64,000 nucleotides of DNA, from positions 1,066,767 through 1,130,766 of the forward strand of contig JAXGYO010000002.1 of NCBI GenBank assembly GCA_040772225.1, written 5' to 3'. The translations under genes and the position numbers were made by a program. Every line of letters starts with the position of its first letter. The stretch's first letter is position 1. Under the pieces are notes generated by a model. It saw only the letters and a list, made by a program, of their open reading frames with translations. It did not search any database and was not told the origin of the DNA. Source of the DNA: Anaerolineae bacterium. GTDB taxonomy: Bacteria; Chloroflexota; Anaerolineae; UBA1429. Positions 7,388-32,176 of the stretch are shown here, piece after piece.

Positions 7388-7540
7388 GCTCGGTCCTCCT
7401 CGCAGTTCTCGTTCGCTGGCCCGGCTCACGGGCAACCTCTCGATTATACCATATCCGCCATAGAGCAGAAATTGTGGTCGACATACAAGAATGCTGGCCC
7501 CACACGTACCGGAGCCAGCATCCCTACAGACTGTACTCTG

Positions 7541-7612: not shown

Positions 7613-7633
7613 GTGCTAATGTGCTCTGCCAGA

Positions 7634-7715: not shown

Positions 7716-7825
7716 GTGCTTCGGACCACGGATCCTGCGATCCCGGGCCCTGGTCAGACGGGCCGTCGTGGGCGACGCGCTTGTGACGCATCGCGGCAGC
7801 ACCGGACGCAGCATCCCTTTCCCGA

Positions 7826-7897
7826 TGAGCCGCCCAGGACTCGAACCTGGAACCAACTGATTAAGAGTCAGTGGCTCTGCCATTGAGCTAGCGGCCC
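7826..7897 (-). tRNA. tRNA-Lys (anticodon CTT)
   Basis: The reverse complement is GGGCCGCTAGCTCAATGGCAGAGCCACTGACTCTTAATCAGTTGGTTCCAGGTTCGAGTCCTGGGCGGCTCA. Anticodon stem ACTGA/TCAGT with loop CTCTTAA, and T-arm CCAGG-TTCGAGT-CCTGG. Confidence 0.85.
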
Positions 7898-8131
7898 GCG
7901 GTTGTCCACTGTCAACGCACCGGCGCCCCGAGACACGCCCGAACCTCTCCACTGGACGCATCGATTATAGGGCAAACGGGCGGTCGGGTCAAATGGATAG
8001 CGCTCCGGGTGGCGCGGGTGAGCCGCCGGCCCAGCCCTGCATACTGGAGCACAAAGCACAGCCCGGCCACGGCGCTCGGCGTGGAGAGGATCATCTGGAA
8101 ACGAAACCACCAGAACGTCAGACCCGGCTCA

Positions 8132-8326
8132 ATGGCCGACAGCTCCAGCGCGTTGCCGATCGCCGGGGACTTGAACCTGGACGGCGTCGTCGACGATGTG
8201 GGCGACTACGATCCCGCGACCCGTAGCTGGTACTATGACGATGACCACGACGGCAATCCGTCTAGCAAGGCCAGCTGGGGCGAGTTCTACGACCTGCCCT
8301 TTGCCGGCGCCCTCTGGCAGTACTAG
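8132..8326 (+). CDS. Hypothetical small protein with DxNxDG calcium-binding-like motif
   Basis: Internal ATG of track ORF 8009..8326: MADSSSALPIAGDLNLDGVVDDVGDYDPATRSWYYDDDHDGNPSS... The GDLNLDGVVDD stretch resembles dockerin/FG-GAP type Ca-binding loops. No clear signal peptide or SD, so coding status is uncertain. Confidence 0.25.
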   Translation: MADSSSALPIAGDLNLDGVVDDVGDYDPATRSWYYDDDHDGNPSSKASWGEFYDLPFAGALWQY

Positions 8327-8383
8327 CCGCGCCGGGCGCAGACGCCGTCAACCGACGGCGCCCGCGCAACGCGCACCAGAACA

Positions 8384-8409
8384 GCGGCCGCCCCTCACGG
8401 GGCGGCCGC
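8384..8409. terminator. GC-rich hairpin between convergent gene ends (possible bidirectional terminator)
   Basis: GCGGCCGCCCC-TCAC-GGGGCGGCCGC, a perfect 11-bp stem. It sits between the + ORF end (8326) and the - gene end (8446). No strong T-tract. Confidence 0.45.
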
Positions 8410-8445
8410 CGATACTATCGTGCCGCGGGTGGTGTGCGCGACCGG

Positions 8446-11400: not shown

Positions 11401-11586
11401 GCCGGGGTCCACCACGATCATGGCGTTCGGCGCCGCCGGCCGGATCAAATATACCGGCCAGATTGCCGAGCCCTCAGCCTCCTGCGCCGCCGGTTCGGCC
11501 TGCGCAAGCGGCGCCATGCTTAGCAGCAGCGCGCAAGCCAGCGCCATCACAACCCACCATCGATCCTTAACAGCATACTCGCCCAT
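8446..11586 (-). CDS. Large secreted protein of unknown function (about 1046 aa)
   Basis: I place the start at ATG 11586, preceded by GGGAGGGAGAG. N-terminal signal-like segment MGEYAVKDRWWVVMALACALLLSMAPLAQAEPAAQ. The body is Thr/Gly/Val-rich and beta-type with no motif I recognise. It is divergent from the flp locus. Confidence 0.8.
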   Translation of the reverse strand: MGEYAVKDRWWVVMALACALLLSMAPLAQAEPAAQEAEGSAIWPVYLIRPAAPNAMIVVDPGVGAEASAATAGAEEEQRDALEAELAALVADGLAGGYGYDERQAVFRAGLSEAGVAALRASMLVAEVEAEPTEAGKEPGAALLPADLAPVTSVIFAQVNSPLVWGNTNIGGLDVQLTLETADGTVIGVPSGSCGVLPNCVYVNPDPLYFETTFVDPIDRTKYVPMRPGDYVHVITSGDNPGTPAYPDPSEDKRVQIVSLSACGLPEADRVEGTTVPNADVIVTLTSPTASLYLATSYLTPGSNMTYAEVKSDASGRFTAATFRTTADATYKVKDIVQGNKGFARVRLLGSSGQPTGDEVWTLWGQNVYVLQNSPVVHGYAFRLPAAPSGVLTAYKATRPTPGLTAELKAPGGAIKATASAGSSTTQPYTVSFDPATIMAGDSVRVAIDYDGNIAFDQTVAVLPVTAAANLSINQVTGTGPANTGMVIGAGNVQGYVTESSRYDAWEARVTASATGAYASGPVTCGTSDVVQLQPGSFGYVGYEAPCGNFVYTAYAAPIAAAMSGFNYVDGWMATGLEQPTVAVSAAGGAVKQAAQPATKRLFWLLYDKLYVNTYYNAATSVYIDPGDTVTVASGGRVHTIPVDDLEARLYAEQDIVAGKAPANTVLRVIPEQDRAAWKQIQASAGGTYAAANPYLTRSSTTCAVTTKNESLDFGDYGRVYLTHPDGNQVFVTFYNRRIRAFENENIVVVSGFLMRALYWPDILPRGDRSVTVHFEPKPGTEGAGTGTKEFPRYSSSVEDKTRDALLMLDSNPAARALIRSAGTLTATFEEGANGMTLPVTLTISPVPLVIGLPDPELYTLAAVGPVRWAGPDSVALAPYGLIDWTGTATLESPTASARFAPSSTVAYAPVQFIRLSAVVPLVPGSVGLVSFVEPLGNEIYSAWGVTDKAYITRLNPLWEGDTVVCGTVKPPAGYPYSVTVNIHDVTPGEDLLLATGTSDATGKFCIAVSPPLYAGQVLLGEVGGVRGQPVVVRKVYRVYLPFVTR

Positions 11587-11665
11587 GGTTACTCTCCCTC
11601 CCGTGCAAGCGCACACCCGATATCCCGATCATTATACAGTACAGTGTGCGCCGTGCGCCAACCCC

Positions 11666-13958: not shown

Positions 13959-14078
13959 GACCACAGACCATGGACCATGGACGATGGCGGTGGGTACACC
14001 GCGGCGCTGAGTACTGCGCTTGACCATGGACGATGGAGTTCGGAAAGTCTGACCATGGACCATAGACGATGGACGATG
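13959..14078 (+). repeat. Tandem heptamer repeats, GACCATG/GACGATG family (forward orientation, three blocks)
   Basis: Block 13959-13986 reads GACCACA GACCATG GACCATG GACGATG. Block 14022-14035 reads GACCATG GACGATG. Block 14051-14078 reads GACCATG GACCATA GACGATG GACGATG. All lie in the cpaB-tadZ intergenic region. Confidence 0.9.
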
Positions 14079-14104
14079 CGTCTCGTCCATGGTCCGTTTG
14101 TTTG
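14051..14104 (+). terminator. Terminator-like hairpin built from heptamer repeats, followed by a T-rich tail
   Basis: Outer stem GACCATGGAC (14051-60) pairs with GTCCATGGTC (14085-94). Inner stem AGACG (14064-68) pairs with CGTCT (14079-83). The tail is CGTTTGTTTG. It sits about 100 nt after the cpaB stop. Confidence 0.45.
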
Positions 14105-14159: not shown

Positions 14160-14280
14160 CTGTGGCAGGCTCGGATTGCGGGCCCTTTGCCGAACACCAT
14201 GGACTGGCACGGCCTGAAGGCAGGCGGTGAGCGTTGTACTGAGCGCAGCGCTGTACTCAGCGCCACGCTCTAGTGAGCGT

Positions 14281-14315
14281 CATCGTCTATCGTCTATGGT
14301 CTATGGTCTATGGTC
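14281..14315 (-). repeat. Tandem heptamer repeats (reverse orientation of the GACCATR/GACGATR family)
   Basis: CATCGTC TATCGTC TATGGTC TATGGTC TATGGTC is the reverse complement of GACCATA x3, GACGATA, GACGATG. It ends 13 nt before the GGAGG SD of tadZ. Confidence 0.9.
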
Positions 14316-14338
14316 TGCGACTGCCACGGAGGCCGCCT

Positions 14339-15538
14339 TTGCCGACCAACCCATCCCGCCCCCTGCGCATCCTGTTGGTGGCCCCCGCCGCCGCGCTGCG
14401 CGATGAGATCCAGACCGCACTGCAGGCGCTGGACGCCGGCCACCTGCTCTACCATGCCGCCAGCGGCGACCTGGCCGGCGCCCGGGCCGAGGAGCTGCGC
14501 CCCGATGTGATCCTGGTGGATGAAGGCATTGCCGGCGCATTCGAGCTGATCGGCCGCCTGGCGCAGGACGCGCCCGCCGCCGTCCTGATCTACCTGGCCA
14601 GCCGGGGGGCCACCGAGGCGATCGCCGAGGCGACCTTTGCCGGGGCGCGCACCTTTCTGAGCAAACCCGTCCAGGCCGAGGCGCTGGGGCGCATCCTGGG
14701 CCAGATCGCCGCCCGCACCCGGGCCGCCGACCGCCCCGCCCCGCATGAGGACCAGACCCGGGTGATCGTCTTTTGCGCGCCCAAGGGGGGCACCGGCCGC
14801 ACGTCGCTGGCCATCAACACCGCCCTGGGCCTGCTCCAGGCGGGGGAGCAATCCGTCGCCCTGGTGGACGCGGACTATGCCGCCCCCGCGGTGGACGTGA
14901 TGCTCAACCTGTACCCGGAGCGCACCATCGCCGACCTGCTGCCCCGCCTGGCGCAGCTCGACGAGTCGCTGCTGCAGGGGGTGCTGGCCACCCACGCCAG
15001 CGGGCTGCGGGTGCTCATGGCCCCCGCGCCGGATGCCCTGGATGCCTACACCATCGGCCCGATGCAGATCGAGCAGATTCTGGGAGCCATGGGGCGCCTC
15101 TACCGCTGGATCCTCATCGACCTGGGCCTGCCCATGGACGAGAGCGCGCTGGCCTGGGTCGATGCCTCGGACCTGATCGTGCTCTCGGTGCTCCCCGAGA
15201 TGGCGGGCCTGCGCAACATGCGCCTGCTGATCGATGCCCTGCTGGCGCGGGGGGTGGACCCGGAGCGCCTCTGGGTGGTGGTCAACCGCAGCACCATCGC
15301 CGGCGGGATCAGCATCGCGGATATTGAGAAACGGCTGCACACCGATGTGCGCCACACGATCCCCGACGACCAGCCGCTGGCCACGCAGGCGGTGAACCGG
15401 GGGGTGCCCGTGATCGCCAGCCACCGCCGGGGCGCGCTGGTGCGCGCCTACCGCGGGCTGGCCGCGGCGCTGCGCCGCACCCTGGGCGTCGCGGAGGAGC
15501 CCGGTGCCCGCAAGCGATTTTTCAGCAGGCGCCGCTAG
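14339..15538 (+). CDS. tadZ: Pilus assembly ATPase TadZ/CpaE (receiver-like domain + ParA/MinD fold)
   Basis: It has a receiver-like N-terminus (RILLVAPAAALRDEIQTAL...DVILVDE). It also has a deviant Walker A (VIVFCAPKGGTGRTSLAINTA) and ParA-like WILIDLG. I prefer TTG 14339, with GGAGG 6 nt upstream. The track start GTG 14273 would translate the heptamer array. Confidence 0.85.
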   Translation: MPTNPSRPLRILLVAPAAALRDEIQTALQALDAGHLLYHAASGDLAGARAEELRPDVILVDEGIAGAFELIGRLAQDAPAAVLIYLASRGATEAIAEATFAGARTFLSKPVQAEALGRILGQIAARTRAADRPAPHEDQTRVIVFCAPKGGTGRTSLAINTALGLLQAGEQSVALVDADYAAPAVDVMLNLYPERTIADLLPRLAQLDESLLQGVLATHASGLRVLMAPAPDALDAYTIGPMQIEQILGAMGRLYRWILIDLGLPMDESALAWVDASDLIVLSVLPEMAGLRNMRLLIDALLARGVDPERLWVVVNRSTIAGGISIADIEKRLHTDVRHTIPDDQPLATQAVNRGVPVIASHRRGALVRAYRGLAAALRRTLGVAEEPGARKRFFSRRR

Positions 15539-15572
15539 CCATGAGCATGCACTATTGGGAGGGACCCTGACC

Positions 15573-16535
15573 ATGCAGATCGCCAGCCCCATGCCCGTCG
15601 CCATTTTGATCGCCCTGGCCGTCCTGCTGCTCTTTGTGGCGCTCTGGCAGCGCTATGGCACGCGGGACCTGGTGGACGCGCGCCTGGGCGAGTACGGTGA
15701 GATCGTAGACGCGGGGAAAAGCTCCGCCAGACCCGCCCGGCGCGGGCCGGTCTCTCTGACGGAGCGCCTCGGCGGCTCCCTGTTGCGCCTCACCTGGGCC
15801 GAGGGGCTGGCCGACAGCCTGCGCCAGGCGGACCTGCCCTATACGGCGGTCGAGTTCGCCCTGCTGATGCTGGTGCTGGGGCTGGGGCTCTTTCTCCTGG
15901 GGACCGCCCGCGGCGGCCCGCTGATGGGCATCGTCCTGGGGGCGCTGGGGCTGTACGGCCCGGTGCTCTACCTCCGCAGCCGCGGACGCAAGCGCCGCAC
16001 CCTGGTGGCCGATCAGCTCCCCGACGTGCTCACCCTGCTGGTGGGCTCGCTGCGGGCGGGCTACGGGTTGTCCCAGGCGCTGGAGGTGGTGGCCGACCAG
16101 GCCCCCGAACCCAGCAAGTCTGAGTACGGCCGGGTGATGCGCGCGGTGGAGCTGGGCGTGTCGCTGCCACAGGCACTGACCGACATGGCGGATCGCATCG
16201 GGTCTGATGACCTGGACCTGTTCGTCAGCGTCGTGAAAATCCAATTCGAGCTGGGCGGCAACCTGGCCCGCACGCTGGAGACCATCGGCGACACGATCCG
16301 CGAGCGCATCCGCCTGCAGCGCGAGATCCGCAGCCAGACGGCGCAGCAGCAGCTCAGCGGCTATGTTCTGGTGGGGCTACCGGTTTTCCTGGCCATTATG
16401 ATCTCGCTGATCAATCCTGGCTTTGTCGACCCGTTGTTCGAGCCTGGCCTGGGACGCATCATGCTGATCGCGATGATTTTCCTCGAGATCGTGGGCTTTT
16501 TGCTCATGCGCAAGATCCTGGACCTGCAGGTGTAA
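15573..16535 (+). CDS. tadB: Tad pilus platform protein TadB (T2SS F-family)
   Basis: ATG 15573 follows GGGAGGG. It has TM segments and the T2SSF-type core LPDVLTLLVGSLRAGYGLSQALEVVADQAPEPSKSEYGRVMRAVELGVSLPQALTDMADRIGSDDL. Confidence 0.85.
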   Translation: MQIASPMPVAILIALAVLLLFVALWQRYGTRDLVDARLGEYGEIVDAGKSSARPARRGPVSLTERLGGSLLRLTWAEGLADSLRQADLPYTAVEFALLMLVLGLGLFLLGTARGGPLMGIVLGALGLYGPVLYLRSRGRKRRTLVADQLPDVLTLLVGSLRAGYGLSQALEVVADQAPEPSKSEYGRVMRAVELGVSLPQALTDMADRIGSDDLDLFVSVVKIQFELGGNLARTLETIGDTIRERIRLQREIRSQTAQQQLSGYVLVGLPVFLAIMISLINPGFVDPLFEPGLGRIMLIAMIFLEIVGFLLMRKILDLQV

Positions 16536-16536
16536 C

Positions 16537-17502
16537 ATGGATGCATTCGCACGCGCGCTGATTGCAGGAATTGAATCGATCGCCAGCCCGGGGCTGGTGG
16601 CGGTCCTGGTGGCGCTGGCCATCGGCGCCCTGATCCTGGCGCTCAGGCCGAGCCCCGCCGGGCGTTCCGTGCAGGAGCGGCTGGATGGCTATGGCGAGCC
16701 GGAGGTCGATGACCTGATCGACAACGAGCGCATGTCCCGCGGTTTCGCCGAGCGGGTGCTCTGGCCCGCCCTGCGCAGCATCCTGCGCTCTGTGGGCCGG
16801 CTCCTGCCGGGGCGCGCCACCGCGGACACGGAGCGGATGCTGGTGGTTGCCGGGCGGCCGGGGGGGCTCACAGCGCTGGATTTCTGGGGGCTGCGATTAT
16901 TGCTCGCCGCAGTGGCGGGCAGTGCAATGGTGGCCCTGGCCTGGCGCGACCAGGCTCCGACTGCGGCGCTCTTCCGGGGCGCGCTGGCGGCCGGGCTGGG
17001 CTTCCTCTTACCCGTGATCTGGCTACGCTCCCGGGTCTCCTCCCGCAAGAACGAGATCCTGCGCGCGCTGCCCAACGCCCTGGACATGCTCTCCATCGGC
17101 GTGGAGGCGGGGCTGGGCTTTGAGGCCTCCATGCTCAAGGTGGGGGAGCAGTGGCAGAACGAACTCACCCGGGAGCTGCAGCGCACGGTGATGGAGATTC
17201 GCGTGGGGGTCACCCGCAACCAGGCGCTGGAGCACCTGGCGGCCCGCACCGACGTCCCCGAGCTCAACAGCTTTGTGGCCGTCCTGGTCCAGTCCACCGA
17301 ACTGGGCGTCTCCATCTCCGAGGTGCTGCACCAGCAGGCGGACCAGATGCGGGAAAAGCGCCGGCAGCGCGCCGAGGCACTGGCGCGGCAGGCGGCGGTC
17401 AAAATGCTCTTTCCCCTGGCGTTCTGCATCTTTCCCGCCTTGTTCGTCGTGATCCTCGGGCCGGCCGTCCCGCGCATCATGGAGTCGTTCAGCGGGCTCT
17501 AG
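16537..17502 (+). CDS. tadC: Tad pilus platform protein TadC (T2SS F-family)
   Basis: It starts 1 nt after the tadB stop. T2SSF core: LPNALDMLSIGVEAGLGFEASMLKVGEQWQNELTRELQRTVMEIRVGVTRNQALEHLAARTDVPEL, with C-terminal TM helices. Confidence 0.85.
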   Translation: MDAFARALIAGIESIASPGLVAVLVALAIGALILALRPSPAGRSVQERLDGYGEPEVDDLIDNERMSRGFAERVLWPALRSILRSVGRLLPGRATADTERMLVVAGRPGGLTALDFWGLRLLLAAVAGSAMVALAWRDQAPTAALFRGALAAGLGFLLPVIWLRSRVSSRKNEILRALPNALDMLSIGVEAGLGFEASMLKVGEQWQNELTRELQRTVMEIRVGVTRNQALEHLAARTDVPELNSFVAVLVQSTELGVSISEVLHQQADQMREKRRQRAEALARQAAVKMLFPLAFCIFPALFVVILGPAVPRIMESFSGL

Positions 17503-21065: not shown

Positions 21066-22412
21066 ATGCGCCGATTGAATGGAACAGCACGCCCGATGAC
21101 CCGCACCGAAGCGCCGGAGCAGACCAGGGATAGTGAAGCACTGGCATCGATCCTGGATCAGGTGCAACGCCGCCTGCTGGCGGAGATCAATCCGACGACC
21201 GACATGAGCAGCCGCGAGCAGGTCCTGCCCACCATCGACGGCATCTTTAACGAGGTCGTCCGCGATTCCAAGGTGCCCCTCAGCCGCGCCGAGCGCGAGG
21301 AGATGCGCAACGCCATCATCGCCAACATCCTCGGCTATGGCCCGCTGGAGGCCCTTCTCGCGGATGATAGCGTCACGGAAATTCTGGTCAACGGCCCCTC
21401 CCAGGTCTATGTGGAGCGGCGCGGGCGCATGATGGAGACGGACATCACCTTCCGCAGCAACGCGGACCTGATGCGCATCGTCGACCGCATCGTGACGCCG
21501 CTGGGCCGCCGCGTGGACGAATCCAGCCCGATGGTGGACGCTCGCCTGCCCGACGGCTCCCGCGTCAACATCATTATCCCGCCGCTCTGCCTGAATGGGC
21601 CCACGATCAGCATCCGCAAGTTCGCCAAGGGCGTGTTCACCGAGGCGGACTATTTGAGGATGGGTTCATTGAGCCAGAACATGGTGGATTTTATGCGCGC
21701 CTGCGTCATGGCGCGTCAGAATATCGTCGTCTCGGGCGGCACGGGCACAGGCAAGACGACGATGCTGAACATGCTGTCCAGTTTTCTGCCCTCCTCAGAG
21801 CGTATCGTGACCATCGAGGATGCGGCCGAGCTGCAGCTCAACCAGCGGCACCTGGTGCGCCTGGAGGCCCGCCCGCCCAACATCGAGGGCCGCGGCGAGG
21901 TCACCATCCGCCAGCTCGTGATCAACGCGCTGCGCATGCGCCCGGACCGGATCATCGTCGGCGAAGTCCGCGGCGGCGAGGCGCTGGACATGCTCCAGGC
22001 AATGAACACCGGTCACGACGGCTCGATGACCACCGCCCACTCGAACAGCGCGCGCGACACGCTGGCCCGTGTGGAGACCATGGTGCTGATGGCTGGCACG
22101 GACATGCCGCTGCGCGCCATCCGCGAGCAGATCGCCTCCGCCTTTGACCTCATCATCCACCTGGAGCGCATGTCCGACGGCTCGCGCAAGGTCGTGCAGG
22201 TCTCTGAGGTACAGGGGCTTGAGGGCGAAGTGATCGTCATGCAGGACATCTTCCGCTTTGAGCAGACCGGCGTGAACGACGGCCGTGTTGAAGGTGTCTT
22301 TACCCCAACGGGCATCCGGCCCAAGTTCGTCGAGCTCTTCCCCGCCAAGGGCATTCCGGTGCAGGCCGAGTGGTTCACCCCCGAGCGGGCGGCCGCGCGG
22401 CGCTGGCGATAG
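21066..22412 (+). CDS. tadA: Tad pilus secretion ATPase TadA/CpaF
   Basis: Walker [16 protein letters not shown] and Walker B/Asp box [11 protein letters not shown]. His-box region [16 protein letters not shown], and [19 protein letters not shown] place the start at ATG 21066, after AAGGTGG. Confidence 0.95.
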
Positions 22413-22421
22413 GAGCAGGCA

Positions 22422-23474
22422 ATGGCGCCATCCAACGGCAGTATGACCTGGTCCGCGGCCCGATTCGGTCACGACTACCCCGTCACGCTCAACGAGACGA
22501 TGGCAGCGGTCGACCGTCAAATCGCGTCGGGCGGCACGGCCGCGCTCCGGCCCATCCCCCTCGGGTTTTCGCCTCTGGACGAGATCCTGAGCGGCGGGCT
22601 CCGATCTGGCGACCTGATGGTCGTCGGCGGCGGCTATGGCGTCGGCAAGACGATCTTTGCGCTGCAGGTCGCCCGAAATGTGGTGCACAGCGACCCGGAC
22701 GCCGCCGCGCTCTATATCTGCTTTGAGCACGAGCCCGCACACCTCATGTCACGCCTGCTCTGTCTGGAGAGCGCGCTCGCCGGGCTCAAGCAGCAGGCGC
22801 TGACCCTGCGCCGCATCGATGCCATGATCTATGATGACGACACGCCGCAGGGCCTGGACGATTGTTTGCGGCACGCGCCGCGCTTTGGCGGCGTCATGCA
22901 GACGATCGACAGCTATGCCTCCCGTCTGGTGTTCATCCGCGCTGGCGGCACGACGGGAACGGTCTCCCGAATTCAGGAGTGGGTACAGGATGTGCAGAGC
23001 CGCGGGAGCAGCCGGGTACTGGTGGTGATCGACTATCTGCAAAAGATACCCATCGAGGGCATGGAGATCGAGACCGAGGATGAGCGCACGATTCAGGTTA
23101 TCCAGGCCCTCAAGGAGATGGCCATGAGCAGCGGTGTGCGCGTGCTTGGCCTGGCGGCCATGAACCAGCTGGGGTTGCGCTCCAGGCGGATGCGCCTCTC
23201 CGATATGCGCGGCGGCACCGCCCTGCAATACGAGGCCGATGTGGGCGTGGTGCTGCACAACAAGCGCGACATCGTCAGCCGCGAGCACCTGGTATACAAC
23301 CAGACCCAGGCCGATGAGATGCGCAATTGGCTGGTGATGAGCATTGAGAAGAACCGTTCGGGTGCCGGAGCGGTCGATCTCGAGTATGCACTGGAGGCAG
23401 CGCACTTTCGGCTCATCGCCGAGGGTCGCCATGTCAGGGATCGTCTGGTCGACGAGCGCGTCGTGCTGGACTAG
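22422..23474 (+). CDS. KaiC/RadA/DnaB-C-like RecA-fold ATPase (possible ArlH/FlaH analogue)
   Basis: 350 aa, starting 9 nt after the tadA stop with AGGAGCAGG SD. Signature PLGFSPLDEILSGGLRSGDLMVVGGGYGVGKTIFALQVARNVV (Walker A GxxxxGKT). Walker B-like SRVLVVIDYLQKIP. Family assignment is by motif only. Confidence 0.8.
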   Translation: MAPSNGSMTWSAARFGHDYPVTLNETMAAVDRQIASGGTAALRPIPLGFSPLDEILSGGLRSGDLMVVGGGYGVGKTIFALQVARNVVHSDPDAAALYICFEHEPAHLMSRLLCLESALAGLKQQALTLRRIDAMIYDDDTPQGLDDCLRHAPRFGGVMQTIDSYASRLVFIRAGGTTGTVSRIQEWVQDVQSRGSSRVLVVIDYLQKIPIEGMEIETEDERTIQVIQALKEMAMSSGVRVLGLAAMNQLGLRSRRMRLSDMRGGTALQYEADVGVVLHNKRDIVSREHLVYNQTQADEMRNWLVMSIEKNRSGAGAVDLEYALEAAHFRLIAEGRHVRDRLVDERVVLD

Positions 23475-23571
23475 GCACGCCGCGTCATCGGGGAGGGAGC
23501 AGGCGGCGAGCCGCAACGTCAGGACCCAGGATCACTGACCACGAGGCAGCCATAGCCGAGAGGAGCAGGCG

Positions 23572-25461
23572 ATGGACAGGGCAAGGGAAAGGACAACTGC
23601 CGACGAGGAGAGCGCTGCGGTCGAAGATCAACTGAACGCAGTGCTCGCCGAGGGCGAGCATCTGGTCGCCAAACCGGTGCTCCGCGGTGAGGCGCTGGAC
23701 TATGTCATCGTCGCCGAGCAGGCGCTGTTTGTCCTGCACGTTCGCAACTGGAAGGGGCAGATCCGACCCGCCGCGCGCGGCGCCTGGCGCCAGCGGCTCG
23801 ATTCAGGCGAGGTGGTTACCCACGCCAATCCCAAATCCGCGATTCGCCGCAAGCAACAGGCCGTTCAGCGTTTTCTCGAGAGCGCCTTTCCCGCCACCCG
23901 GGTCACCTGCCACCATCTGATTGTGCTTACGGATCCCTCCGCCCAGGTGTTCCTGCACGGAGCCGCCGATCCGCCGGTGGTCGAGATCGGCAATCTGCGC
24001 AGTGAGATGGACAGTCTGATGCTGGCCAGCCGCGGCGATGTGCTGGATGCCCCACTGCGGGAATCGTTGGCAGAAGCCTTTTCCGGCCGAGCCTACCAGA
24101 CCTTTGAGATGGCGAACCAGCCCTTTATCTTTCGTTCCGGGGGCTTTTTCGGGTTCGGCAAGCGCGCACACACCATCCAGCAGGTCATCAAGCACCTCGA
24201 GCAGCATCCTCAGGACGGCATCTACCATCTCTGGAACGGCTCGCTGGCCCAGTGGCTGCGCGAGCAGGGCGCCACGCACCTGGCGGACCTGGCCGTGCAG
24301 GCCATTCGCCACCCCGACAGTGAGCGCATCGCGCTGGAGACATTCCTGCAGCAGTCCGGCCTGGTGGACCGCCCGAGGCTGGTGCAAACACCGCCACGTC
24401 TCAACTTTCATTATGTAGGTGTCGGAGAGCGGGCCGCGATGATCTGGCGCCTCCGCAAAGGCCGTCGCAGCCGCGGATACCTGCATGGTTCCGCCATCAG
24501 CCGCACGCCCTGGCTGCAGGTTGCCCAGGCCTCCTTTGAAGGGCAGATGGACGCGACCGTCACGGTGGACACCGAGGCGATCCCCATCACTGAACGGCCG
24601 GCCCGCGGCCACATCGAGCTGGACACCAATGCCACAGAGCAGCCCATGGACGTGGAGGTGCTCGTGAACGTGCGCTCGAGGCCCTCCACCTTTGAGACGC
24701 GTATCATCCGCCCGCTATGGGGGCTGTTACTGGGCGCGATCATCGGCGCCCTCATCGGCGTGGCCCTGCACACCCTGGGCCTGGACGAGGGCCTCAGCGA
24801 CTGGCTTGCCGCCCGCATACCCTGGCTGCCGCCCGTCGCTGCCAATCAGGCCCTGCCTGCTCTGATTGGTCTGCTATGGGCGATTCTGGGATTCATCCGG
24901 GGCTGGCACCAGCGCTGGGCCTGGCCCACCTGGTATGCCACGCTCCGCTGGCTGGGCCGCACCCTCGCCTGGATGGCCGGCCTCGCGCTGGCCGCCATAG
25001 CAGGCTATGCCCTGCTCCGCTGGCTCTTTCCCATTGTGGAGGGCTGGGCGACGCCCGAGTCCTCTAAACATGCAGCGTTGCTCGGTGCCGCCCTGGGCGT
25101 GATCCCGGGCAGCATCGGCGAGATTCGCGCCTCGCACTATCGCGGCGTGGTCAATCTGGAGCCGCATCCCGTGCGCCGCGTCCTGCGGCCGGTCGCCTGG
25201 GCTGCTCTGGGCGTCGCGCTCCTGGTGGTGATCGTGGGTAGCGTCCGGTTCTTTGCCCCGCAGGTCACCGTTCAGGGAGCGGCAGCAGAGGGGCGCAGCC
25301 GGCTCGAGATTTGGATGGATGCCCGTGAAAGCGATTTGACGGACTTGCGCGACGGGGTACTTTTGCGCTATCATGATAGGAGAGCGACGCCAATTGCCTC
25401 GCCAGCGGCAACCACGCGCCCGACGCAGGCGCCGCCCGCCACGTCGACTCCCGCACCCTGA
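23572..25461 (+). CDS. NERD-domain-like membrane protein
   Basis: 629 aa with GAGAGGAGCAGG SD. The N-terminus LDYVIVAEQALFVLHVRNWKGQIRPAARGAWRQRL...THANPKSAIRRKQQAVQRFL matches the NERD pattern. The C-terminal third has four to five hydrophobic helices (LWGLLLGAIIGALIGVAL, ALPALIGLLWAILGFI, LAWMAGLALAAIAGYALL, VAWAALGVALLVVIVGSV) and a Pro/Thr tail. Confidence 0.75.
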   Translation: MDRARERTTADEESAAVEDQLNAVLAEGEHLVAKPVLRGEALDYVIVAEQALFVLHVRNWKGQIRPAARGAWRQRLDSGEVVTHANPKSAIRRKQQAVQRFLESAFPATRVTCHHLIVLTDPSAQVFLHGAADPPVVEIGNLRSEMDSLMLASRGDVLDAPLRESLAEAFSGRAYQTFEMANQPFIFRSGGFFGFGKRAHTIQQVIKHLEQHPQDGIYHLWNGSLAQWLREQGATHLADLAVQAIRHPDSERIALETFLQQSGLVDRPRLVQTPPRLNFHYVGVGERAAMIWRLRKGRRSRGYLHGSAISRTPWLQVAQASFEGQMDATVTVDTEAIPITERPARGHIELDTNATEQPMDVEVLVNVRSRPSTFETRIIRPLWGLLLGAIIGALIGVALHTLGLDEGLSDWLAARIPWLPPVAANQALPALIGLLWAILGFIRGWHQRWAWPTWYATLRWLGRTLAWMAGLALAAIAGYALLRWLFPIVEGWATPESSKHAALLGAALGVIPGSIGEIRASHYRGVVNLEPHPVRRVLRPVAWAALGVALLVVIVGSVRFFAPQVTVQGAAAEGRSRLEIWMDARESDLTDLRDGVLLRYHDRRATPIASPAATTRPTQAPPATSTPAP

Positions 25462-25464: not shown

Positions 25465-25899
25465 ATGGCCGTTATTGTGAACGCCATACACAGACGAAGT
25501 GAACGCCAGCGCGGCCAGGCACTGGTCGAGACTGCGCTGAGTATGTTGATCGTCCTGGTGCTGCTGGCCGGCATGGTAGACCTCGGGTTTGCACTGGGTG
25601 CACGAGTAGCCGTCAGCAGCGCTTCTCGCGAGGGCGCACGCTTTGGGTCTCGATACCCGGAGAACGACGCGGCCATCGTGGCTGCCGCCAGGGGCGCCCT
25701 GCCCAATACACTGGTCCCCGCCCTCCAGGCGACCGTGACCATCAGCCCTACGCTACCTTCGGGGCGCACCCAGTGGCACGACCTCGAAGTCAGCGTGCGC
25801 TACAACTATCAGCCCTTCCTCGGGAACCTGTTTGGCATATCAGGCACAATCCCTATGACAGCCACAACAACCATGGTGATCAGTGGTGGACCGAACTGA
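25465..25899 (+). CDS. tadE: TadE-like pseudopilin
   Basis: 144 aa, starting 3 nt after the upstream stop. N-terminus RSERQRGQALVETALSMLIVLVLLAGMVDLGFAL is the TadE N-terminal motif (G/QxxVE plus a hydrophobic helix). Confidence 0.8.
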   Translation: MAVIVNAIHRRSERQRGQALVETALSMLIVLVLLAGMVDLGFALGARVAVSSASREGARFGSRYPENDAAIVAAARGALPNTLVPALQATVTISPTLPSGRTQWHDLEVSVRYNYQPFLGNLFGISGTIPMTATTTMVISGGPN

Positions 25900-25957: not shown

Positions 25958-27079
25958 ATGAGAGAAACGATGCAGACGCACAGAGAGCGCGGACAGACGC
26001 TGGTGATCGTGGCGTTGGCCCTAACCACGCTGTTGTTGATGGTCGGACTAGTGACCGACATCGGCGTATGGTACAACGCGCGGCGCGATATGCAGAACGC
26101 GGCGGACGCAGCGGCCCTGGCGGGGGCGTGGAAGTTCTGCGACCAGAACAACGCGGACTCGGCTACACAGACTCTCGCTCGCAATGAGGCTATCCGTGTG
26201 GCACAGACGGTCCATGGATCAGACCCTGACGGCACCGTGGTTTCTACGGGTAACTCTACGGTCAGCGTAACCACAGCCATTGACTCTCCGCTGTTCTTTT
26301 TCAAGCTCGTGGGCATCGACACCATACCGGTCAACGCGGAGGCCGAGGCCGTCTGCGGTTGCGCCAGCGAGCTCGGCGGGGCCTGGCCCATCGCATTCGA
26401 TCTAGACACCTAGGAATCAGTCGAATGCGGCGAGTCCCTGGTGATTTGGGAAGGCAAAGACGAGCTCCCGTTCGCGGGCGTGGATCTGTGCGTTAGCTGC
26501 TATTGCCCCGCTGGTATCGACGCCCTTGTTGCGTTCGGTGCCACAGGTCTCCCGGGCCTGCCCGCGAACCGAGGATGGCTGTCGCTAAGCTATCCACCGG
26601 AGAACAATTGCGGAGGCGGATCCACTGCCCTTGCTGGCTGGATACTGAACGACTACCCTGGAGCGATTGAGGCAGGTAACTGCGTGATTACGGAGACAGG
26701 CAATAAGACTACCCTTGTCGACTCGGCAAAGACTAGAATGAATAACGATCCTTACGTGTGTGTCGTGATCTTTGATCCTGATCTGAACGATACCTGCACG
26801 GATGCCATGGTCACCACCGGGCAGGTCGGGTGTGGAGAGCCACTCTACGTTGTTGGGACTGGATGTGTCAAGGTAGTGGGCACCTACAAGAACAAGGTTC
26901 TCGGACTGAGCCCCAAGCCCGGAGCAACGCCGCCATGCCCTGCCGGAGCATTGGAAAAGGTCAAGGCGATAATGGCCACCAAGATGTGTAACGACCCTCT
27001 ATGCCCGGTGTCTGGCATCGGCTCCGCCGGTGGCCAGCCAGCACAGGGGTGCATCTTGGCGGCCAGCCTGGTCAAGTAG
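25958..27079 (+). pseudogene. tadG: TadG-like pseudopilin split by a single in-frame TAG (track ORFs 25958..26413 and 26441..27079 share one frame)
   Basis: The N-part HRERGQTLVIVALALTTLLLMVGLVTDIGVWYNARRDMQNAADAAALAGA is the TadG N-terminal motif. TAG is at 26411-26413. The frame continues open immediately afterwards (ESVECGESLVIWEGKD...GWLSL...GGGSTALAGWILNDYPGAIEAGNCVITETGNK...YVVGTGCVKVVG), a typical TadG-like C-terminal region. Confidence 0.6.
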
Positions 27080-27126
27080 CGATATTCTGTGCATCCGCCC
27101 CTAATGTAATCGCAAGGAGTACCGCA

Positions 27127-27525
27127 TTGGCACTCATCGCACATAACGCCACGCGCAAACGCGATCTGATGACCCAGGGCCTGACCGCTGACAGGCCCTG
27201 GTCGCGTGTACGCGGCCTGATCGGCTGCGCACCGTTGAAAGAAGGCCAGGGCCTGTGGATCACCCCCTGCAACGGCATCCACATGCTTTTCATGTCGTTC
27301 GCTATCGACGCGGTGTACCTTGACCGCGAGCGTCGCATCGTAGCGCTAGATGCCGACATGGCGCCGTGGCAGCTGGGGCGCTTTATCCGGGGGGCACACT
27401 CGGTGTTGGAGCTTCCTGCCGGCACGATCGCGGCCACGGGCACCGAGGTGGGCGATCAGCTTATTCTCACGCGCGTTTCAGAGGGAGCGGAGAGAGCGCC
27501 TATGTCACGGACCGCAGGGCGGTAG
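27127..27525 (+). CDS. DUF192 family protein
   Basis: ALIAHNATRKRDLMTQGLTADRPWSRVRGLIGCAPLKEGQGLWITPCNGIHMLFMSFAIDAVYLDRERRIVAL...VLELPAGT matches the DUF192 pattern (RxxGLxG, a GxxF/W block, IHMxFMxFxIDxxxLD, LELPxG). The start is uncertain: TTG 27127 or ATG 27166. Confidence 0.7.
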   Translation: MALIAHNATRKRDLMTQGLTADRPWSRVRGLIGCAPLKEGQGLWITPCNGIHMLFMSFAIDAVYLDRERRIVALDADMAPWQLGRFIRGAHSVLELPAGTIAATGTEVGDQLILTRVSEGAERAPMSRTAGR

Positions 27526-27660: not shown

Positions 27661-28113
27661 CTATTCTGCCTGCACGGAGGAACGGCCCCTGGCACAGTAT
27701 GTTCCCTGGGGACATTGCACGCCCCCGGGCTCCAGCGTCCTCGCGGCGAAGAGATTACGGATGCCAGGCACAATCAATTCCACCGGATAGTATACAGTCA
27801 CCTGAATCGTCGAACCCAGCGCCCGGTCCGCAACTTCAGGGGGGACGACCGTGATCTGATTGCCGGTGATCGTCCAGGCCGGCAGTGTGGGGCAAAACTC
27901 GTTGACTCTGGTAAGTGTTTGCTCCTGCGACTTGCCCACGAGCGCAACCCGCGCCAGGCTATTGGCACAGTGGTAAGCTGACACGAGTCCGTTTAGCACC
28001 CGCCCGAACTCGAGCAGCCCAAAGATCAGCAGCAGCACCACGGGCAGCACCAGGGCGAACTCGACCAGCGACTGCCCCCGTTCCCTGACCTCTGCCTTGC
28101 TGTAGAATCCCAT
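27661..28113 (-). CDS. tadE: TadE-like pseudopilin
   Basis: 150 aa: MGFYSKAEVRERGQSLVEFALVLPVVLLLIFGLLEFGRVLNG... This is the canonical TadE N-terminal motif. Confidence 0.85.
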   Translation of the reverse strand: MGFYSKAEVRERGQSLVEFALVLPVVLLLIFGLLEFGRVLNGLVSAYHCANSLARVALVGKSQEQTLTRVNEFCPTLPAWTITGNQITVVPPEVADRALGSTIQVTVYYPVELIVPGIRNLFAARTLEPGGVQCPQGTYCARGRSSVQAE

Positions 28114-29055: not shown

Positions 29056-30129
29056 ATGGTCGATACACTGGAGTTGATGCGCCGTCTCTCCGAGGCCCCG
29101 GGGATCTCGGGCCACGAGGAGACCGTGCGCGCCCTGATTCAGGAGGCGATGGCTCCCTTCGCCGACGAGATGCGCACCGATGCCCTGGGGAACTTGATCG
29201 CCCTGCAGCGAGGCGGCGGCACCGGAGAGCAACGCCGGGCCATCATGCTGGCCGCCCACATGGACGAGATCGGGCTGATGGTTTCTGGCTTTGACGGGGC
29301 TTTTTTGCGTTTCGCGCCAGTGGGCGGCGTGGACCTGCGCACCCTGGTGGGACAGGAGGTCACCGTCCACGGCTGCCGGGACCTGCCAGGGATCGTCGCC
29401 AGCCGTCCGCCCCACGTGCTCACCGCCGAGGAGCGCAGCCAGCCGGTGCCTCTGGAAAAGCTGTTCATCGACACCGGCCTCACCGAGCAGGGCCTGCGCG
29501 AGCAGGTGCGCATCGGTGACCTGATCACCATGCGGCGGACGTTCACCGAGCTGGCCAACGGCTACGCCACGGGCAAGGCCATGGACGACCGCGCCGGCGT
29601 GGCCAGCCTAGTGGTCTGCCTGGAGGCGTTGCGGGGCATGACTCACCCCTGGGACGTCTACGCCGTAGCCACGACTCAGGAGGAGGTGGGGCTCAAGGGC
29701 GCCACCGTGAGCGCCTTTGGCCTGACGCCCGACCTGGGCATCGCCGTGGACGTGGGCTTTGGCAAGCAGCAGGGCGTCAATGACAGCAGGGTCATCGAGA
29801 TGGACGCCGGCCCGGCAGTGGCCATGGGACCCAACATCCATCCGAAAATGCGCGCCCGCCTGATGGCCACCGCCAAAGAACTGGAGCTCAAGGTTCAGAG
29901 CGAGGTGGTTGCGGGCGCCTCTGGCACCGACGGCTGGGCCATCCAGGTGTCGCGGGAGGGCATCCCCACCCTGGTGCTCTCGATCCCGCTGCGCTATATG
30001 CACACCTCGGTGGAGACGATCTGCCTCCGCGACATCGATCGCACCGGTCGGCTGCTGGCGTATTTCATCGCCAGGCTGGATGGCGCCGCAGTCGACGAGC
30101 TCGGCCTCGAGGAAGGAGCGACGGCATGA
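29056..30129 (+). CDS. M42 family aminopeptidase (TET/FrvX/YsdC-like), paralog 1
   Basis: 357 aa with AAGGAG SD. M42 pattern: LSEAPGISGHEETVRALI..., DALGNLIA, MLAAHMDEIGLMV, AMDDRAGV, TTQEEVGLKGA. Confidence 0.9.
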   Translation: MVDTLELMRRLSEAPGISGHEETVRALIQEAMAPFADEMRTDALGNLIALQRGGGTGEQRRAIMLAAHMDEIGLMVSGFDGAFLRFAPVGGVDLRTLVGQEVTVHGCRDLPGIVASRPPHVLTAEERSQPVPLEKLFIDTGLTEQGLREQVRIGDLITMRRTFTELANGYATGKAMDDRAGVASLVVCLEALRGMTHPWDVYAVATTQEEVGLKGATVSAFGLTPDLGIAVDVGFGKQQGVNDSRVIEMDAGPAVAMGPNIHPKMRARLMATAKELELKVQSEVVAGASGTDGWAIQVSREGIPTLVLSIPLRYMHTSVETICLRDIDRTGRLLAYFIARLDGAAVDELGLEEGATA

Positions 30130-31178
30130 ACCTGCAAGCATTCACACAGGCCCGCGGCGTCTCGGGCAACGAGGATGCCGCCCGTGAGGTCATCCTGGAG
30201 GCGGTGCGCCCATTCATCGACGATCACCGGGTGGACGCGCTGGGCAACCTGATCTGCCACAAGGCTCCCAGGGGGGGCGCAGACGGGGCAACACCGCTCA
30301 GAGTGATGGTAGCCGCCCATATGGACGAGATCGGCCTGATCATCACCGGCATCAACGCCGATGGCACGCTCTCCTTTGACAAGATCGGGGGCATCGACGA
30401 CCGGGTGTTGCTCTCCAAGCAAGTGCTTGTGGGAGCCGATGCCGTGCCGGGGGTGATCGGCTATGCGCCGATTCATCTGATCCCGGCGGCAGAGCGCGCC
30501 AAGGCCCCCGACATGTCCAGGGCCGTGATCGACATTGGCGCCACAGACAAGGCCGGCGCCGAAAAGCTGGTCTCGCTCGGCGACTATGTCTCCTTCCGTG
30601 GCGAGTGGGCCGTGCTGGACGAGGGCGGCCTGCGCACCGTCGTCGCCAAGGCCCTCGATGATCGGGCCGGCTGCGCCATCCTGGCGGAGCTGCTCCAGGA
30701 GAATTATGCCATCGACCTGTATGGCGTGTTCACCACGCAGGAGGAGGTAGGCCTGCGCGGCGCCCGCGTGGCCGCCCAGCGCATCGCCCCCGACGTGGCC
30801 ATCGTCCTGGAGGGCACCATCTGCGACGATCTGCCCAAGCCCCCTGAGGAAGACATCTCGCCCGTTACGCGCCTGGGTGACGGACCGGCGATCACCTTCA
30901 TGGATCGCTCCGTGATCGCCGATCGCCGCCTGGTCAAGCTGCTGCTGACCGTCGCAGGCGAAAAAGGAATTCCGCACCAGTTCAAGAGCGCCGTGGCGGG
31001 CGGCACCGACGCGGGGGCTATCCACCTCACAGGCGAGGGCGTGCCCTCGGTTACTGTGGCCGTGCCATCGCGCTATATCCATGCGCCCATCAGTATGCTC
31101 AGTCTCAACGATTTCGATCACGCCGTGCAGCTCGTGCGCGCGGCGCTGCATGCTTTGGAGGGAGGGCTCCCGTCATGA
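30126..31178 (+). CDS. M42 family aminopeptidase, paralog 2
   Basis: 350 aa, with a 4-nt ATGA overlap with paralog 1. Motifs: ARGVSGNEDAAREVI, DALGNLIC, VAAHMDEIGLII, ALDDRAGC, TTQEEVGLRGA. Confidence 0.9.
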   Translation: MNLQAFTQARGVSGNEDAAREVILEAVRPFIDDHRVDALGNLICHKAPRGGADGATPLRVMVAAHMDEIGLIITGINADGTLSFDKIGGIDDRVLLSKQVLVGADAVPGVIGYAPIHLIPAAERAKAPDMSRAVIDIGATDKAGAEKLVSLGDYVSFRGEWAVLDEGGLRTVVAKALDDRAGCAILAELLQENYAIDLYGVFTTQEEVGLRGARVAAQRIAPDVAIVLEGTICDDLPKPPEEDISPVTRLGDGPAITFMDRSVIADRRLVKLLLTVAGEKGIPHQFKSAVAGGTDAGAIHLTGEGVPSVTVAVPSRYIHAPISMLSLNDFDHAVQLVRAALHALEGGLPS

Positions 31179-32176
31179 AAGAGATGATTCAGCGTCTGGT
31201 CGAGGCTTATGGCCCCTCGGGTAACGAGGCGGGCATCGCCGCCGTCATTCAGGAGATGGTGCGCCCCTACGTGGACGACCTGCGCACCGATGCCCTGGGC
31301 AACGTGATCGCGCTCAAACGCGGCACGGGCGGCGGCGTTCCTGTGATGGTGGCCGCCCACATGGACGAGATCGGCGTCATCGTGACCTGGGTGGATGATG
31401 AAGGCTTTTTGCGGTTCGCGCCCACCGGCGGCGTCTCCCCTGTCACCCTGATGGGCGGCCGGGTGCGCTTCGCCAACGGCACGCTGGGCGTCATCGGCTG
31501 GGAGCGCTGGATGCGTCCTGACGCCGGCACGCGCCGGCCCGAACTCGACGAGATGTTCATCGATGTGGGCGCCACCTCGAAAGAAGACTGCCCCGTGGGG
31601 ATCGGTGATGCGGCCGGCTTTGTGCGCCCGTTCGAGGATCTGGGCAACCGGCTGGTGGCCAAGTCCATGGATGACCGCATCGCCTGCGCCGTGGCCATTC
31701 AGGCGCTCAAGGAGATCACTTCCACGCCCAACGATCTGTACGTGGTGTTCACCGTGCAGGAAGAGGTCGGCACGCGCGGCGCCCTGACCGCCGCCTATGG
31801 CATCGAGCCCGCCCTGGGCATCGCCGTGGACGTGACCATGACCGGTGACACGCCCAAAGCCCGCCCCATGGCGGTGAGCCTGGGAGATGGCCCGGCGATC
31901 AAGGTCATGGACTCGGGCATGCTGGCCCACCCGGACGTGGTGCGCTGGATGACCACGACGGCAGAGGCGCTGGGGATCGCCTATCAGCGCGAGGTCCTTC
32001 TGGGCGGCAGCACCGACGCGCGCGCCATCCAGACCTCGCGGGCGGGCGTGCCCGCCGGCTGCATCTCGATCCCCTGCCGGTACGTGCACACGCCGTCGGA
32101 GATGGTGGACACTGGCGACGTGGAGGGCGCGGTCAAGCTGTTGACCGCCCTGCTGTCGGGACCCATCGTTCTCTAG
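31175..32176 (+). CDS. M42 family aminopeptidase, paralog 3
   Basis: 333 aa, with a 4-nt overlap with paralog 2. Motifs: AYGPSGNEAGIAAVI, DALGNVIA, VAAHMDEIGVIV, SMDDRIAC, TVQEEVGTRGA. Confidence 0.9.
   Translation: MKEMIQRLVEAYGPSGNEAGIAAVIQEMVRPYVDDLRTDALGNVIALKRGTGGGVPVMVAAHMDEIGVIVTWVDDEGFLRFAPTGGVSPVTLMGGRVRFANGTLGVIGWERWMRPDAGTRRPELDEMFIDVGATSKEDCPVGIGDAAGFVRPFEDLGNRLVAKSMDDRIACAVAIQALKEITSTPNDLYVVFTVQEEVGTRGALTAAYGIEPALGIAVDVTMTGDTPKARPMAVSLGDGPAIKVMDSGMLAHPDVVRWMTTTAEALGIAYQREVLLGGSTDARAIQTSRAGVPAGCISIPCRYVHTPSEMVDTGDVEGAVKLLTALLSGPIVL

Follow-up and report, generated by a model that had tools for sequence, protein, structure and literature searches.

A DnaB-like ATPase without the N-terminal domain is linked to the Tad pilus loci of Chloroflexota and some Actinomycetota

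Gene organization of the Tad locus

The window analyzed here, a stretch of 64,000 nucleotides (nt) from contig JAXGYO010000002.1 of an Anaerolineae bacterium, has a G+C content of about 65% throughout, and its plus strand bears a complete Tad operon; the genome is Anaerolineales-like and belongs to the Chloroflexota. The Flp pilins, CpaB/RcpC, TadZ, TadA, TadB, TadC and the TadE/TadG pseudopilins are all encoded at this one locus (Table 1). Between the gene for the motor ATPase TadA (CpaF) and that for the TadE-like pseudopilin lie the two genes considered in this report, one for a 350-amino-acid (aa) stand-alone RecA-fold ATPase (hereafter, the ATPase) and one for a 629-aa protein with a NERD domain and transmembrane (TM) helices (hereafter, NERD-TM). 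Judged from its profile matches and motifs, the ATPase is a paralogue of DnaB that lacks the DnaB N-terminal domain and is not a member of the KaiC/ArlH family; its link with Tad loci holds for the ATPase family in Chloroflexota and in some Actinomycetota.

An earlier reading of the window, made from sequence only (the sequence-only reading), had described the two genes as a KaiC/ArlH-like ATPase and a NERD-domain membrane protein embedded in the operon. Both open reading frames (ORFs) were found where that reading had placed them, with the spacing that it gave, and the peptides that it quoted from the ATPase occur in the translation. The ATPase ORF starts with ATG 9 nt past the tadA/cpaF stop codon (TAG, 22410-22412), which is overlapped by AGGAG; the NERD-TM ORF starts 97 nt past the ATPase stop codon and is preceded by GAGGAG, and its own stop codon lies 3 nt before the start of the TadE ORF (25465). 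Tad genes stand on both sides and no terminator-like site was found between the tadA, ATPase and NERD-TM genes, so that both genes do lie inside the operon. The closest relative in the species-level genome set was an uncultured Anaerolineales metagenome-assembled genome (MAG; locus L004, ATPase identity 84%). The ratios of nonsynonymous to synonymous substitution rates against L004 were 0.11 for the ATPase, 0.10 for NERD-TM and 0.05 for CpaF; thus, the three are real genes under purifying selection and not chance ORFs.

Table 1. Coordinates of the Tad genes and their associated genes in the window
Feature	Coordinates	Strand	Evidence or remark
Flp-type pilin gene 1, 76 aa	12275..12505	+	Flp motif GQTLTEYALIIAFVAIVLV in translation
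Flp-type pilin gene 2, 64 aa	12694..12888	+	Translation with GQTMAEYALILVLIAIVVI
CpaB/RcpC-like protein, 290 aa	13083..13955	+	Pfam SAF 1.7e-8; RcpC/SAF gene at the equivalent place in L001
TadZ/CpaE-like protein (receiver domain + MinD/ParA ATPase)	14273..15538	+	NCBIfam MinD 8.5e-19, residues 163-402
TadB, T2SSF platform protein	15504..16535	+	Pfam T2SSF 1.9e-20
TadC, T2SSF platform protein	16537..17502	+	Pfam T2SSF 2.8e-20
TPR + PD40/TolB-like beta-propeller protein, 1162 aa	17545..21033	+	Pfam PD40 8.4e-16; NCBIfam TolB propeller 1.6e-23
TadA/CpaF motor ATPase, 455 aa	21045..22412	+	Pfam T2SSE 2.7e-67; top NCBIfam model TIGR03819 (TadA-family) 5.8e-99
Stand-alone DnaB C-domain-like RecA-fold ATPase, 350 aa, Tad-associated	22422..23474	+	Pfam DnaB_C 1.3e-23
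NERD-TM protein, 629 aa	23572..25461	+	Pfam NERD 4.5e-8; AlphaFold2 model
TadE-like pseudopilin	25465..25899	+	Pfam TadE 1.6e-10
Tad/TadG-like pseudopilin	25958..26413	+	Pfam Tad 7.9e-15, Tad_C 7.6e-4
DUF192 protein	27001..27525	+	Pfam DUF192 2.6e-17; downstream of the Tad genes in many related loci

Identity of the ATPase

The family label given by the sequence-only reading was not borne out. With Pfam, DnaB_C matched residues 45-329 of the ATPase (84 bits), whereas KaiC matched residues 48-126 only (36 bits, E = 5.1e-9). The list of NCBIfam matches was headed by DnaB models, all far under their cutoffs (TIGR00665, 78.5 bits; cutoff, 385), and the archaeal KaiC-domain models reached about 30 bits, with cutoffs near 248. 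A profile built from 18 orthologues of the ATPase was searched against the PDB; Geobacillus DnaB was on top (E = 1.9e-19) with both the N- and C-terminal motif blocks matched, the KaiC matches were limited to the Walker A third (approximately residues 37-126), and none of the entries obtained at E ≤ 1e-3 bore the name FlaH or ArlH. When the AlphaFold2 model of the ATPase was searched with Foldseek, all of the top 50 matches were DnaB or G40P chains (E of about 1e-14, template modelling scores of 0.51-0.61). Membership in the KaiC/ArlH family was therefore rejected, as Pfam, NCBIfam, the PDB profile search and Foldseek all point to the DnaB C-domain.

All the DnaB motifs (H1, H1a, H2, H3 and H4) and the arginine finger are present in the ATPase, which was aligned to Geobacillus DnaB with a hidden Markov model. 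In an alignment of 18 diverse orthologues (48-76% identity), the invariant residues were G73 and G75-K76-T77 of the Walker A motif (GxGKT, 73-77), E102, D204-Y205-x-Q207 (DYLQ), R263-G264 of the H4 loop, E271, D273, and K310-N311-R312-x-G314 of the arginine finger (KNRxG). The C-terminus has a further motif, with the consensus RLVDEKVVLE across the aligned family and the form RLVDERVVLD in the window protein. The N-terminal helical domain of DnaB forms a collar and binds primase. No match to this domain (PF00772) was found in the ATPase, which starts at about position 158 of the 435 of the TIGR00665 model, in the linker-helix region.

An exhaustive search of 1.84 billion cluster representatives yielded 132 clusters with E < 1e-30 and 797 with E < 1e-10. 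Among the top 150 that were listed, almost every one was 320-370 aa long. Two relatives (P0146 and P0147, 33-34% identity) have a DnaB N-domain together with a C-domain as in the window ATPase; they are not canonical replicative DnaB, scoring 60 bits to Geobacillus DnaB. Since there are relatives that carry a DnaB N-domain with a matching C-domain, the ATPase is not an archaeal ArlH that was carried along with the Tad system. One of the two, P0147 (519 aa, 8001-9560 of locus L084), is encoded among housekeeping-like genes; behind its DnaB N-domain stands the divergent C-domain of the family, which is 33% identical to the window ATPase, with LYICYEHDP, DYLQKVP, IEKNRTG and LIDEK as shared motifs. 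It is possibly the full-length ancestor type of the family.

Linkage of the ATPase to Tad loci

In a scan of one genome per species, 176 relatives of the ATPase were found and 80 loci were kept, for which the gene context was determined by tblastn with the proteins of the window operon. The 69 loci with an identity of 44% or more were regarded as orthologous, and linkage was counted in the 63 of them with at least 1.5 kb of upstream sequence. The CpaF gene was directly upstream of the ATPase gene in 60 of the 63 loci, with a median gap of 10 nt from the CpaF stop to the ATPase start, and the order TadZ-TadB-TadC-PD40 protein-CpaF was conserved upstream. The tie to tadA that had been read from this one operon is, therefore, stable in related genomes. 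As for the three apparently unlinked loci, one (L068) abuts the end of its contig, with NERD-TM, TadE and TadG encoded downstream, and the two truly unlinked ones (L014 and L033) are nested, in a neighbour-joining tree, within the one clade formed by the Tad-linked Chloroflexota ATPases. Across the loci, the identities of the ATPase track those of CpaF (r = 0.80). One Caldilinea MAG has two Tad loci (L034 and L061), each with its own copy of the ATPase gene.

Family members as distant as 30-43% identity also belong to Tad loci, in which the genes are arranged in at least three further ways. In L085 and L086, RcpC-TadZ-TadA, a VWA::TadB fusion and TadC are followed by the ATPase on the opposite strand, a GAF-HisKA_3 kinase, a LuxR regulator and two Flp genes; in L087 (Acidimicrobiales), the order Flp-Flp-TadE-TadG-x-TadZ-TadA-VWA::TadB-TadC-ATPase-prepilin peptidase runs on one strand with gaps of 3-6 nt; L088 and L089 are further Tad loci with distant members. 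In metagenomes, which were scanned for this distant Tad-linked subgroup with 11 closer sequences as the query, a layout of Flp, response regulator and histidine kinase, then the ATPase, and then TadC-TadB-TadA-TadZ-RcpC recurs many times. Of the 63 informative contigs, at least 22 had Tad genes and at least 26 had either Tad genes or the kinase-regulator pair; these counts are lower bounds, most contigs being 2-5 kb long.

The linkage thus survives rearrangement of the gene order in two phyla, which is strong evidence of a functional coupling between the ATPase and the Tad system and excludes a recently inserted cassette.

Note that in Tad loci of the actinobacterial type (L085, L086, L087, L089, L103, L104, L106, L131, L133 and L142) TadB is a fusion with a VWA domain (about 645 aa), and that genes for a GAF-HisKA_3 kinase and a LuxR regulator often stand between the Flp genes and the gene for the DnaB-like ATPase.

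The NERD-TM protein

The NERD-like N-terminus that the sequence-only reading had noticed is significant: Pfam NERD (PF08378) scored 34 bits over residues 16-120 (cutoff, 22.1), which aligned to positions 8-111 of the 111 in the model, and a Pfam NERD match was found in 16 of 25 relatives. The E-x-K position reads H-V-R (VLHVRNW) in the window protein, as noted earlier, and in the alignment of the 25 sequences the column of the catalytic Glu is never E (H in 12, Y in 4, R in 4, D in 2, and Q, K and A in 1 each). The Asp column has D in 19 of 25, and the Lys column has R in 8, K in 6, and other residues or gaps in the rest. The suggestion of a non-catalytic fold was thereby strengthened, and the nuclease is, as far as these columns tell, very probably inactive.

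An AlphaFold2 model of NERD-TM, built with 14 database homologues, had a mean predicted local distance difference test (pLDDT) score of 77.9. It consists of a NERD-like alpha/beta domain (1-172) predicted to be cytoplasmic, a helical domain (200-262), a beta-sandwich (270-368), five TM helices (373-561), two C-terminal helices and a disordered Pro/Thr tail, in agreement with the four to five TM helices and the Pro/Thr tail described earlier. By inspection of the sequence, the charges of the loops fit a putative N-in, C-out topology. With Foldseek, the sandwich resembled PapD/ASH/Ig domains, and the search with the whole model gave no match for the NERD, helical or TM parts; nothing below E = 0.1 was obtained in the PDB profile search. 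The NERD domain is not where conservation is highest; the best-conserved parts are PF(V/I)FRSG...HLRNGTL..W, GRGYL and the C-terminal LRYYDRRAP. All of the 15 homologues found by a word-indexed search were unnamed or 'NERD domain-containing'.

NERD-TM had been proposed as the membrane partner of the ATPase. Its gene directly follows the ATPase gene in 28 of the 41 loci with enough flanking sequence, and TadE takes this place in 11 of the 41, so that NERD-TM is optional and an obligatory role is weakened. In the ATPase tree the basal branches have NERD-TM and the loci without it form several subclades, which suggests an ancestral gene that was lost repeatedly. No homologue of NERD-TM was found on the metagenome contigs with Tad loci of the actinobacterial type.

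The sequence-only reading had offered, as an alternative, that the ATPase and NERD-TM are an anti-phage or mobile cassette lodged in a phage-receptor operon. The NERD region does show weak partial matches to the N-termini of PglW and MAD6 (for the latter, 3.4e-6 and 25.9 bits against a cutoff of 460), and PADLOC gave marginal partial matches to SspC (3.1e-4, 16.6 bits) and MkoA (7.6e-4, 15.2 bits), but all of these scores are far under the family cutoffs. Moreover, the position of the ATPase gene is fixed across classes of Chloroflexota, the Tad-linked orthologues form a single clade with identities that follow CpaF, and the synteny is conserved and vertically inherited; the G+C content and the codon-position G+C content of both genes match those of the flanking genes; and the nuclease Glu is missing, while the ATPase occurs without NERD-TM in the 11 loci mentioned above. 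We rejected the defence reading on these grounds and consider it extremely improbable.

Family members outside Tad loci

Eleven paralogues of the ATPase (36-41% identity) are not linked to Tad genes. In four of these from Chloroflexia (L075, L076, L078 and L082; 37-39% identity), the ATPase gene overlaps the end of a gene for a TgpA-like transglutaminase by 4 nt. Other non-Tad paralogues adjoin genes for LysM-YkuD and BipA, or for an M20 peptidase and FtsH. The contexts of the non-Tad paralogues are heterogeneous, and no unifying theme was found among those examined. In L083, the kinase and regulator neighbours of the ATPase are kept without Tad genes.

The TgpA-like protein is a membrane protein with Transglut_core and DUF4129 domains; in L076, for example, its gene is at 7260-9953 and that of the ATPase paralogue at 9950-11008. 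This is a second conserved pairing of the ATPase family with a multi-pass membrane protein. Two or three DnaB_C-like paralogues also stand in tandem on metagenomic contigs (L102, 3293-6475; L145, 3636-5681), with no Tad genes nearby.

Because many family members are in housekeeping-like contexts, and because the JGI pipelines annotate members of the family as 'replicative DNA helicase', the ATPase might be taken for a hitch-hiking DnaB paralogue with a job in replication, repair or other housekeeping that is co-transcribed with the Tad genes by an accident of genome organization. We regard this as quite improbable: the Tad linkage recurs in different gene orders in two phyla and each of the duplicated Tad loci has its own copy, and the NCBIfam DnaB score is far under its cutoff, with the N-domain for contact with primase absent.

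Proposed role of the ATPase

Tad pili are regarded as driven by one bifunctional ATPase, CpaF/TadA, and how it changes between extension and retraction is an open question (PMC6920026, PMC11300603 and PMC12019362). Our preferred reading is that the DnaB-derived ATPase without the N-domain is a dedicated accessory of the Tad pilus machine, for which we put the chances at about even, and that the Tad pili of these Chloroflexota and some Actinomycetota probably use a second ATPase. From the intact arginine finger and linker helix, active sites between subunits are expected, and hence an oligomeric ring; as far as motifs can tell, the ATPase most likely forms an active ring of the DnaB type, probably a hexamer. 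The tight spacing of its gene to tadA points to synthesis in step with TadA/CpaF, with translational coupling probable.

We infer that the ring would sit at the cytoplasmic face of the Tad machine and dock to the TadA hexamer and/or TadZ, and that its nucleotide state would control the single bifunctional motor, be it in assembly, in activity or in direction; ring formation, the binding partners and the effect on the motor all belong to this inferred part. The action on TadA or TadZ is modelled on that of ArlH on ArlI, and would have been reached by an independent recruitment of a bacterial DnaB paralogue. NERD-TM would be an optional membrane-anchored adaptor, whose cytoplasmic part of 370 residues may bind the cytoplasmic complex, with the five TM helices beside TadB/TadC and the Pro/Thr tail extending into the envelope.

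Several observations weigh against the accessory role. The AlphaFold2 model of the ATPase is of moderate quality (pLDDT 68.7, predicted template modelling score 0.73). Many members of the family are outside Tad loci (in TgpA-like, LysM-YkuD and M20 contexts, and in tandem arrays), which indicates that the fold is not intrinsically pilus-specific. In a mirror-tree analysis, the correlation with the ATPase was higher for TadZ (r = 0.87, partial 0.68) than for CpaF (r = 0.70, partial -0.11), a weak result in that the rates differ and only 27 loci were compared; it speaks weakly against a specific contact with CpaF and hints at TadZ as a candidate partner. Finally, the intact DNA loop and catalytic motifs of DnaB would fit a nucleic-acid motor just as well.

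The last point leads to the alternative that the ATPase is a translocase for single-stranded DNA, of the DnaB type, by which the Tad pilus of monoderm bacteria would be tied to the uptake of DNA (natural transformation) or to its export, much as by ComFA or FtsK-like motors, with NERD-TM as a DNA-binding membrane adaptor. In addition to the invariance of all helicase motifs, including R263-G264 of the H4 DNA loop and the arginine finger, the closest relatives of the ATPase in sequence and fold are DNA helicases, NERD is a nuclease-related fold, and the top NCBIfam model of the neighbouring TadA (TIGR03819) is named TadA family conjugal transfer-associated ATPase; furthermore, transformation of Micrococcus luteus needs Tad pili (PMC4322843), and an FtsK/SpoIIIE gene stands beside its tad-1 cluster (PMC8467076). 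However, none of the inspected loci showed a DNA-processing gene in its Pfam and tblastn gene context, with no search aimed at comEA, comEC or dprA. The NERD domain is predicted to be cytoplasmic and has lost the catalytic Glu in all 25 relatives, NERD-TM is dispensable in 11 of the 41 loci, and the actinobacterial layout places the ATPase beside a two-component system, not beside DNA genes. We consider the DNA motor unlikely.

The same actinobacterial layout supports a different alternative, in which the ATPase is a KaiC-like sensor of nucleotide or phosphorylation state that controls the expression or placement of the Tad system, through the receiver domain of TadZ or through the adjacent histidine kinase and LuxR-type regulator, and leaves the motor untouched. 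In this second lineage the ATPase repeatedly stands between the kinase and regulator and the Tad genes; L083 retains the kinase-regulator neighbours without Tad genes; the distances of the ATPase co-vary best with those of TadZ, a receiver-domain protein; and KaiC-family ATPases were proposed as regulators of archaeal type IV pili (PMC4858521). On the other hand, the Chloroflexota gene is tightly coupled to tadA in a structural operon, suggesting a stoichiometry matched to the motor and not a catalytic regulator, the Pfam scan showed no kinase gene nearby in the window, and the KaiC-type match spans only the Walker A third. A purely regulatory role appears to us rather unlikely.

Returning to the accessory role, its widest form is that the DnaB-derived ring is an ancient, unrecognized core accessory of Tad machines in monoderm Chloroflexota and Actinomycetota, a second ring under or beside TadA/TadZ that controls the motor as a convergent counterpart of ArlH; in a radical version, the ring would be a single-stranded DNA motor and Tad pili would be DNA-transport organelles. 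We offer this wide form tentatively, as a possibility that falls short of even chances.

If the accessory role is true, a second, conserved ring ATPase, catalytically intact by its motifs and apparently coupled to TadA in translation, would be a natural candidate for the switch or for an assembly factor. Probable pilus components would then also include thousands of proteins that at present bear the label 'replicative DNA helicase' or 'AAA family ATPase'. The Tad models for genome surveys are without the genes for the ATPase, NERD-TM and the PD40 propeller, and in one survey Tad pili were encoded in about one-third of 3,780 Chloroflexota genomes (PMC12488501).

Other features of the window

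The Flp genes have a counterpart in the related locus L001, where Flp_Fap genes are at the matching position. In the window, the minus strand upstream of the Flp genes (8446-11616) encodes a protein of 1056 aa whose N-terminus resembles a signal peptide and for which Pfam gave no match. Residues 29-160 of TadZ match NCBIfam response-regulator models. A prepilin peptidase (Peptidase_A24), which is present in related loci, was not detected among the window ORFs scanned (12.2-34.4 kb and three upstream ORFs).

The cpaB-tadZ intergenic region has arrays of a 7-nt unit (GACCATG, GACGATG or GACCATA), in one orientation at 13959-14095 and inverted at 14281-14317; about 200 nt separate the arrays, with a TATAAT-like box near 14155. 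A pattern of two and a half units had 8 matches, only in this region, where 0.01 was expected by chance. The region is, by its repeats and box, probably a regulator-binding region with an internal promoter. Because of the repeats at 14281-14317, the annotated GTG start of tadZ (14273) is doubtful.

The C-terminal half (approximately residues 540-1162) of the TPR and PD40 protein is kept between tadC and tadA in most related Chloroflexota Tad loci, as judged by tblastn, and no match to the N-terminal 540 residues or so was found in most of the other related loci by the same search; the counterparts in L001 and L002 are of 630-650 aa. These bacteria have no secretin, and the propeller protein may be one more Tad component that is specific to their lineage.

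Downstream of the pseudopilin genes, a 212-aa ORF whose function is not known (26441-27079) overlaps the DUF192 ORF by 79 nt, so that the start codon of one or the other has probably been misassigned; proteins with weak homology to the 212-aa product follow TadG in L003, L012, L018, L029, L037 and L046. A second TadE-like pseudopilin gene lies on the opposite strand just beyond the DUF192 gene (27661-28113, minus strand), and three M42 glutamyl aminopeptidase paralogues (357, 350 and 333 aa) are encoded in a row just downstream of the Tad locus (29056-32176, plus strand).

Comparison with known systems

A DnaB-like ATPase as a conserved part of Tad gene clusters is apparently undescribed. A search by term of papers on Chloroflexota surface structures, the archaellum, archaeal type IV pili and Micrococcus luteus competence gave no mention of a DnaB-type ATPase, NERD-TM or PD40 protein in bacterial Tad loci, and neither did the titles and abstracts obtained by full-text searches.

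The DnaB helicases (Geobacillus, 2r6a and 4esv; G40P of SPP1, 3bgw and 3bh0) are the best match to the ATPase in sequence and fold, over about 310 residues, and share with it the linker-helix region, Walker A, the catalytic Glu, the DYLQ Walker B, the H4 loop and KNRxG. The ATPase differs from them in the absence of the primase-binding N-terminal domain, in its score (78 against 385 bits), in the RLVDEKVVLE-type motif at the C-terminus, and in its location in pilus operons and not in replication contexts. NERD-TM resembles the NERD proteins (PF08378; the N-termini of PglW and MAD6) with a score above the gathering threshold, but the catalytic Glu of the D...ExK signature is missing. Moreover, its NERD fold is joined in one chain with a helical domain, a sandwich of the PapD/ASH type and five TM helices, and its gene belongs to a pilus operon. 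The FtsK/SpoIIIE gene of Micrococcus luteus likewise encodes a RecA-fold P-loop protein, a DNA translocase, beside a tad cluster (tad-1) in a monoderm high-GC bacterium (PMC8467076), but this protein belongs to another ATPase family and is tied to the expression of competence genes.

In archaea, KaiC-family ATPases are RecA-superfamily proteins that recur in or near type IV pilus operons and were proposed as regulators (Makarova et al. 2016, PMC4858521); they are of the KaiC type and often have two domains, whereas the Tad ATPase is bacterial, of the DnaB type, and resides in bona fide Tad loci. ArlH (FlaH), which binds and regulates ArlI (PMC5019145; PMC12488501), is also a single-domain RecA-superfamily ATPase, and its gene adjoins that of a TadA-related motor ATPase in a type IV filament system, but it is of another family, whereas the window ATPase of about 350 aa has the full set of DnaB motifs. 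Since the relatives of the window ATPase are bacterial DnaB-like proteins, its resemblance to ArlH is convergent, and, if the accessory role is true, the motors of type IV filaments would have recruited a partner ATPase of the RecA superfamily more than once, namely ArlH/KaiC in archaea and a DnaB paralogue in bacteria.

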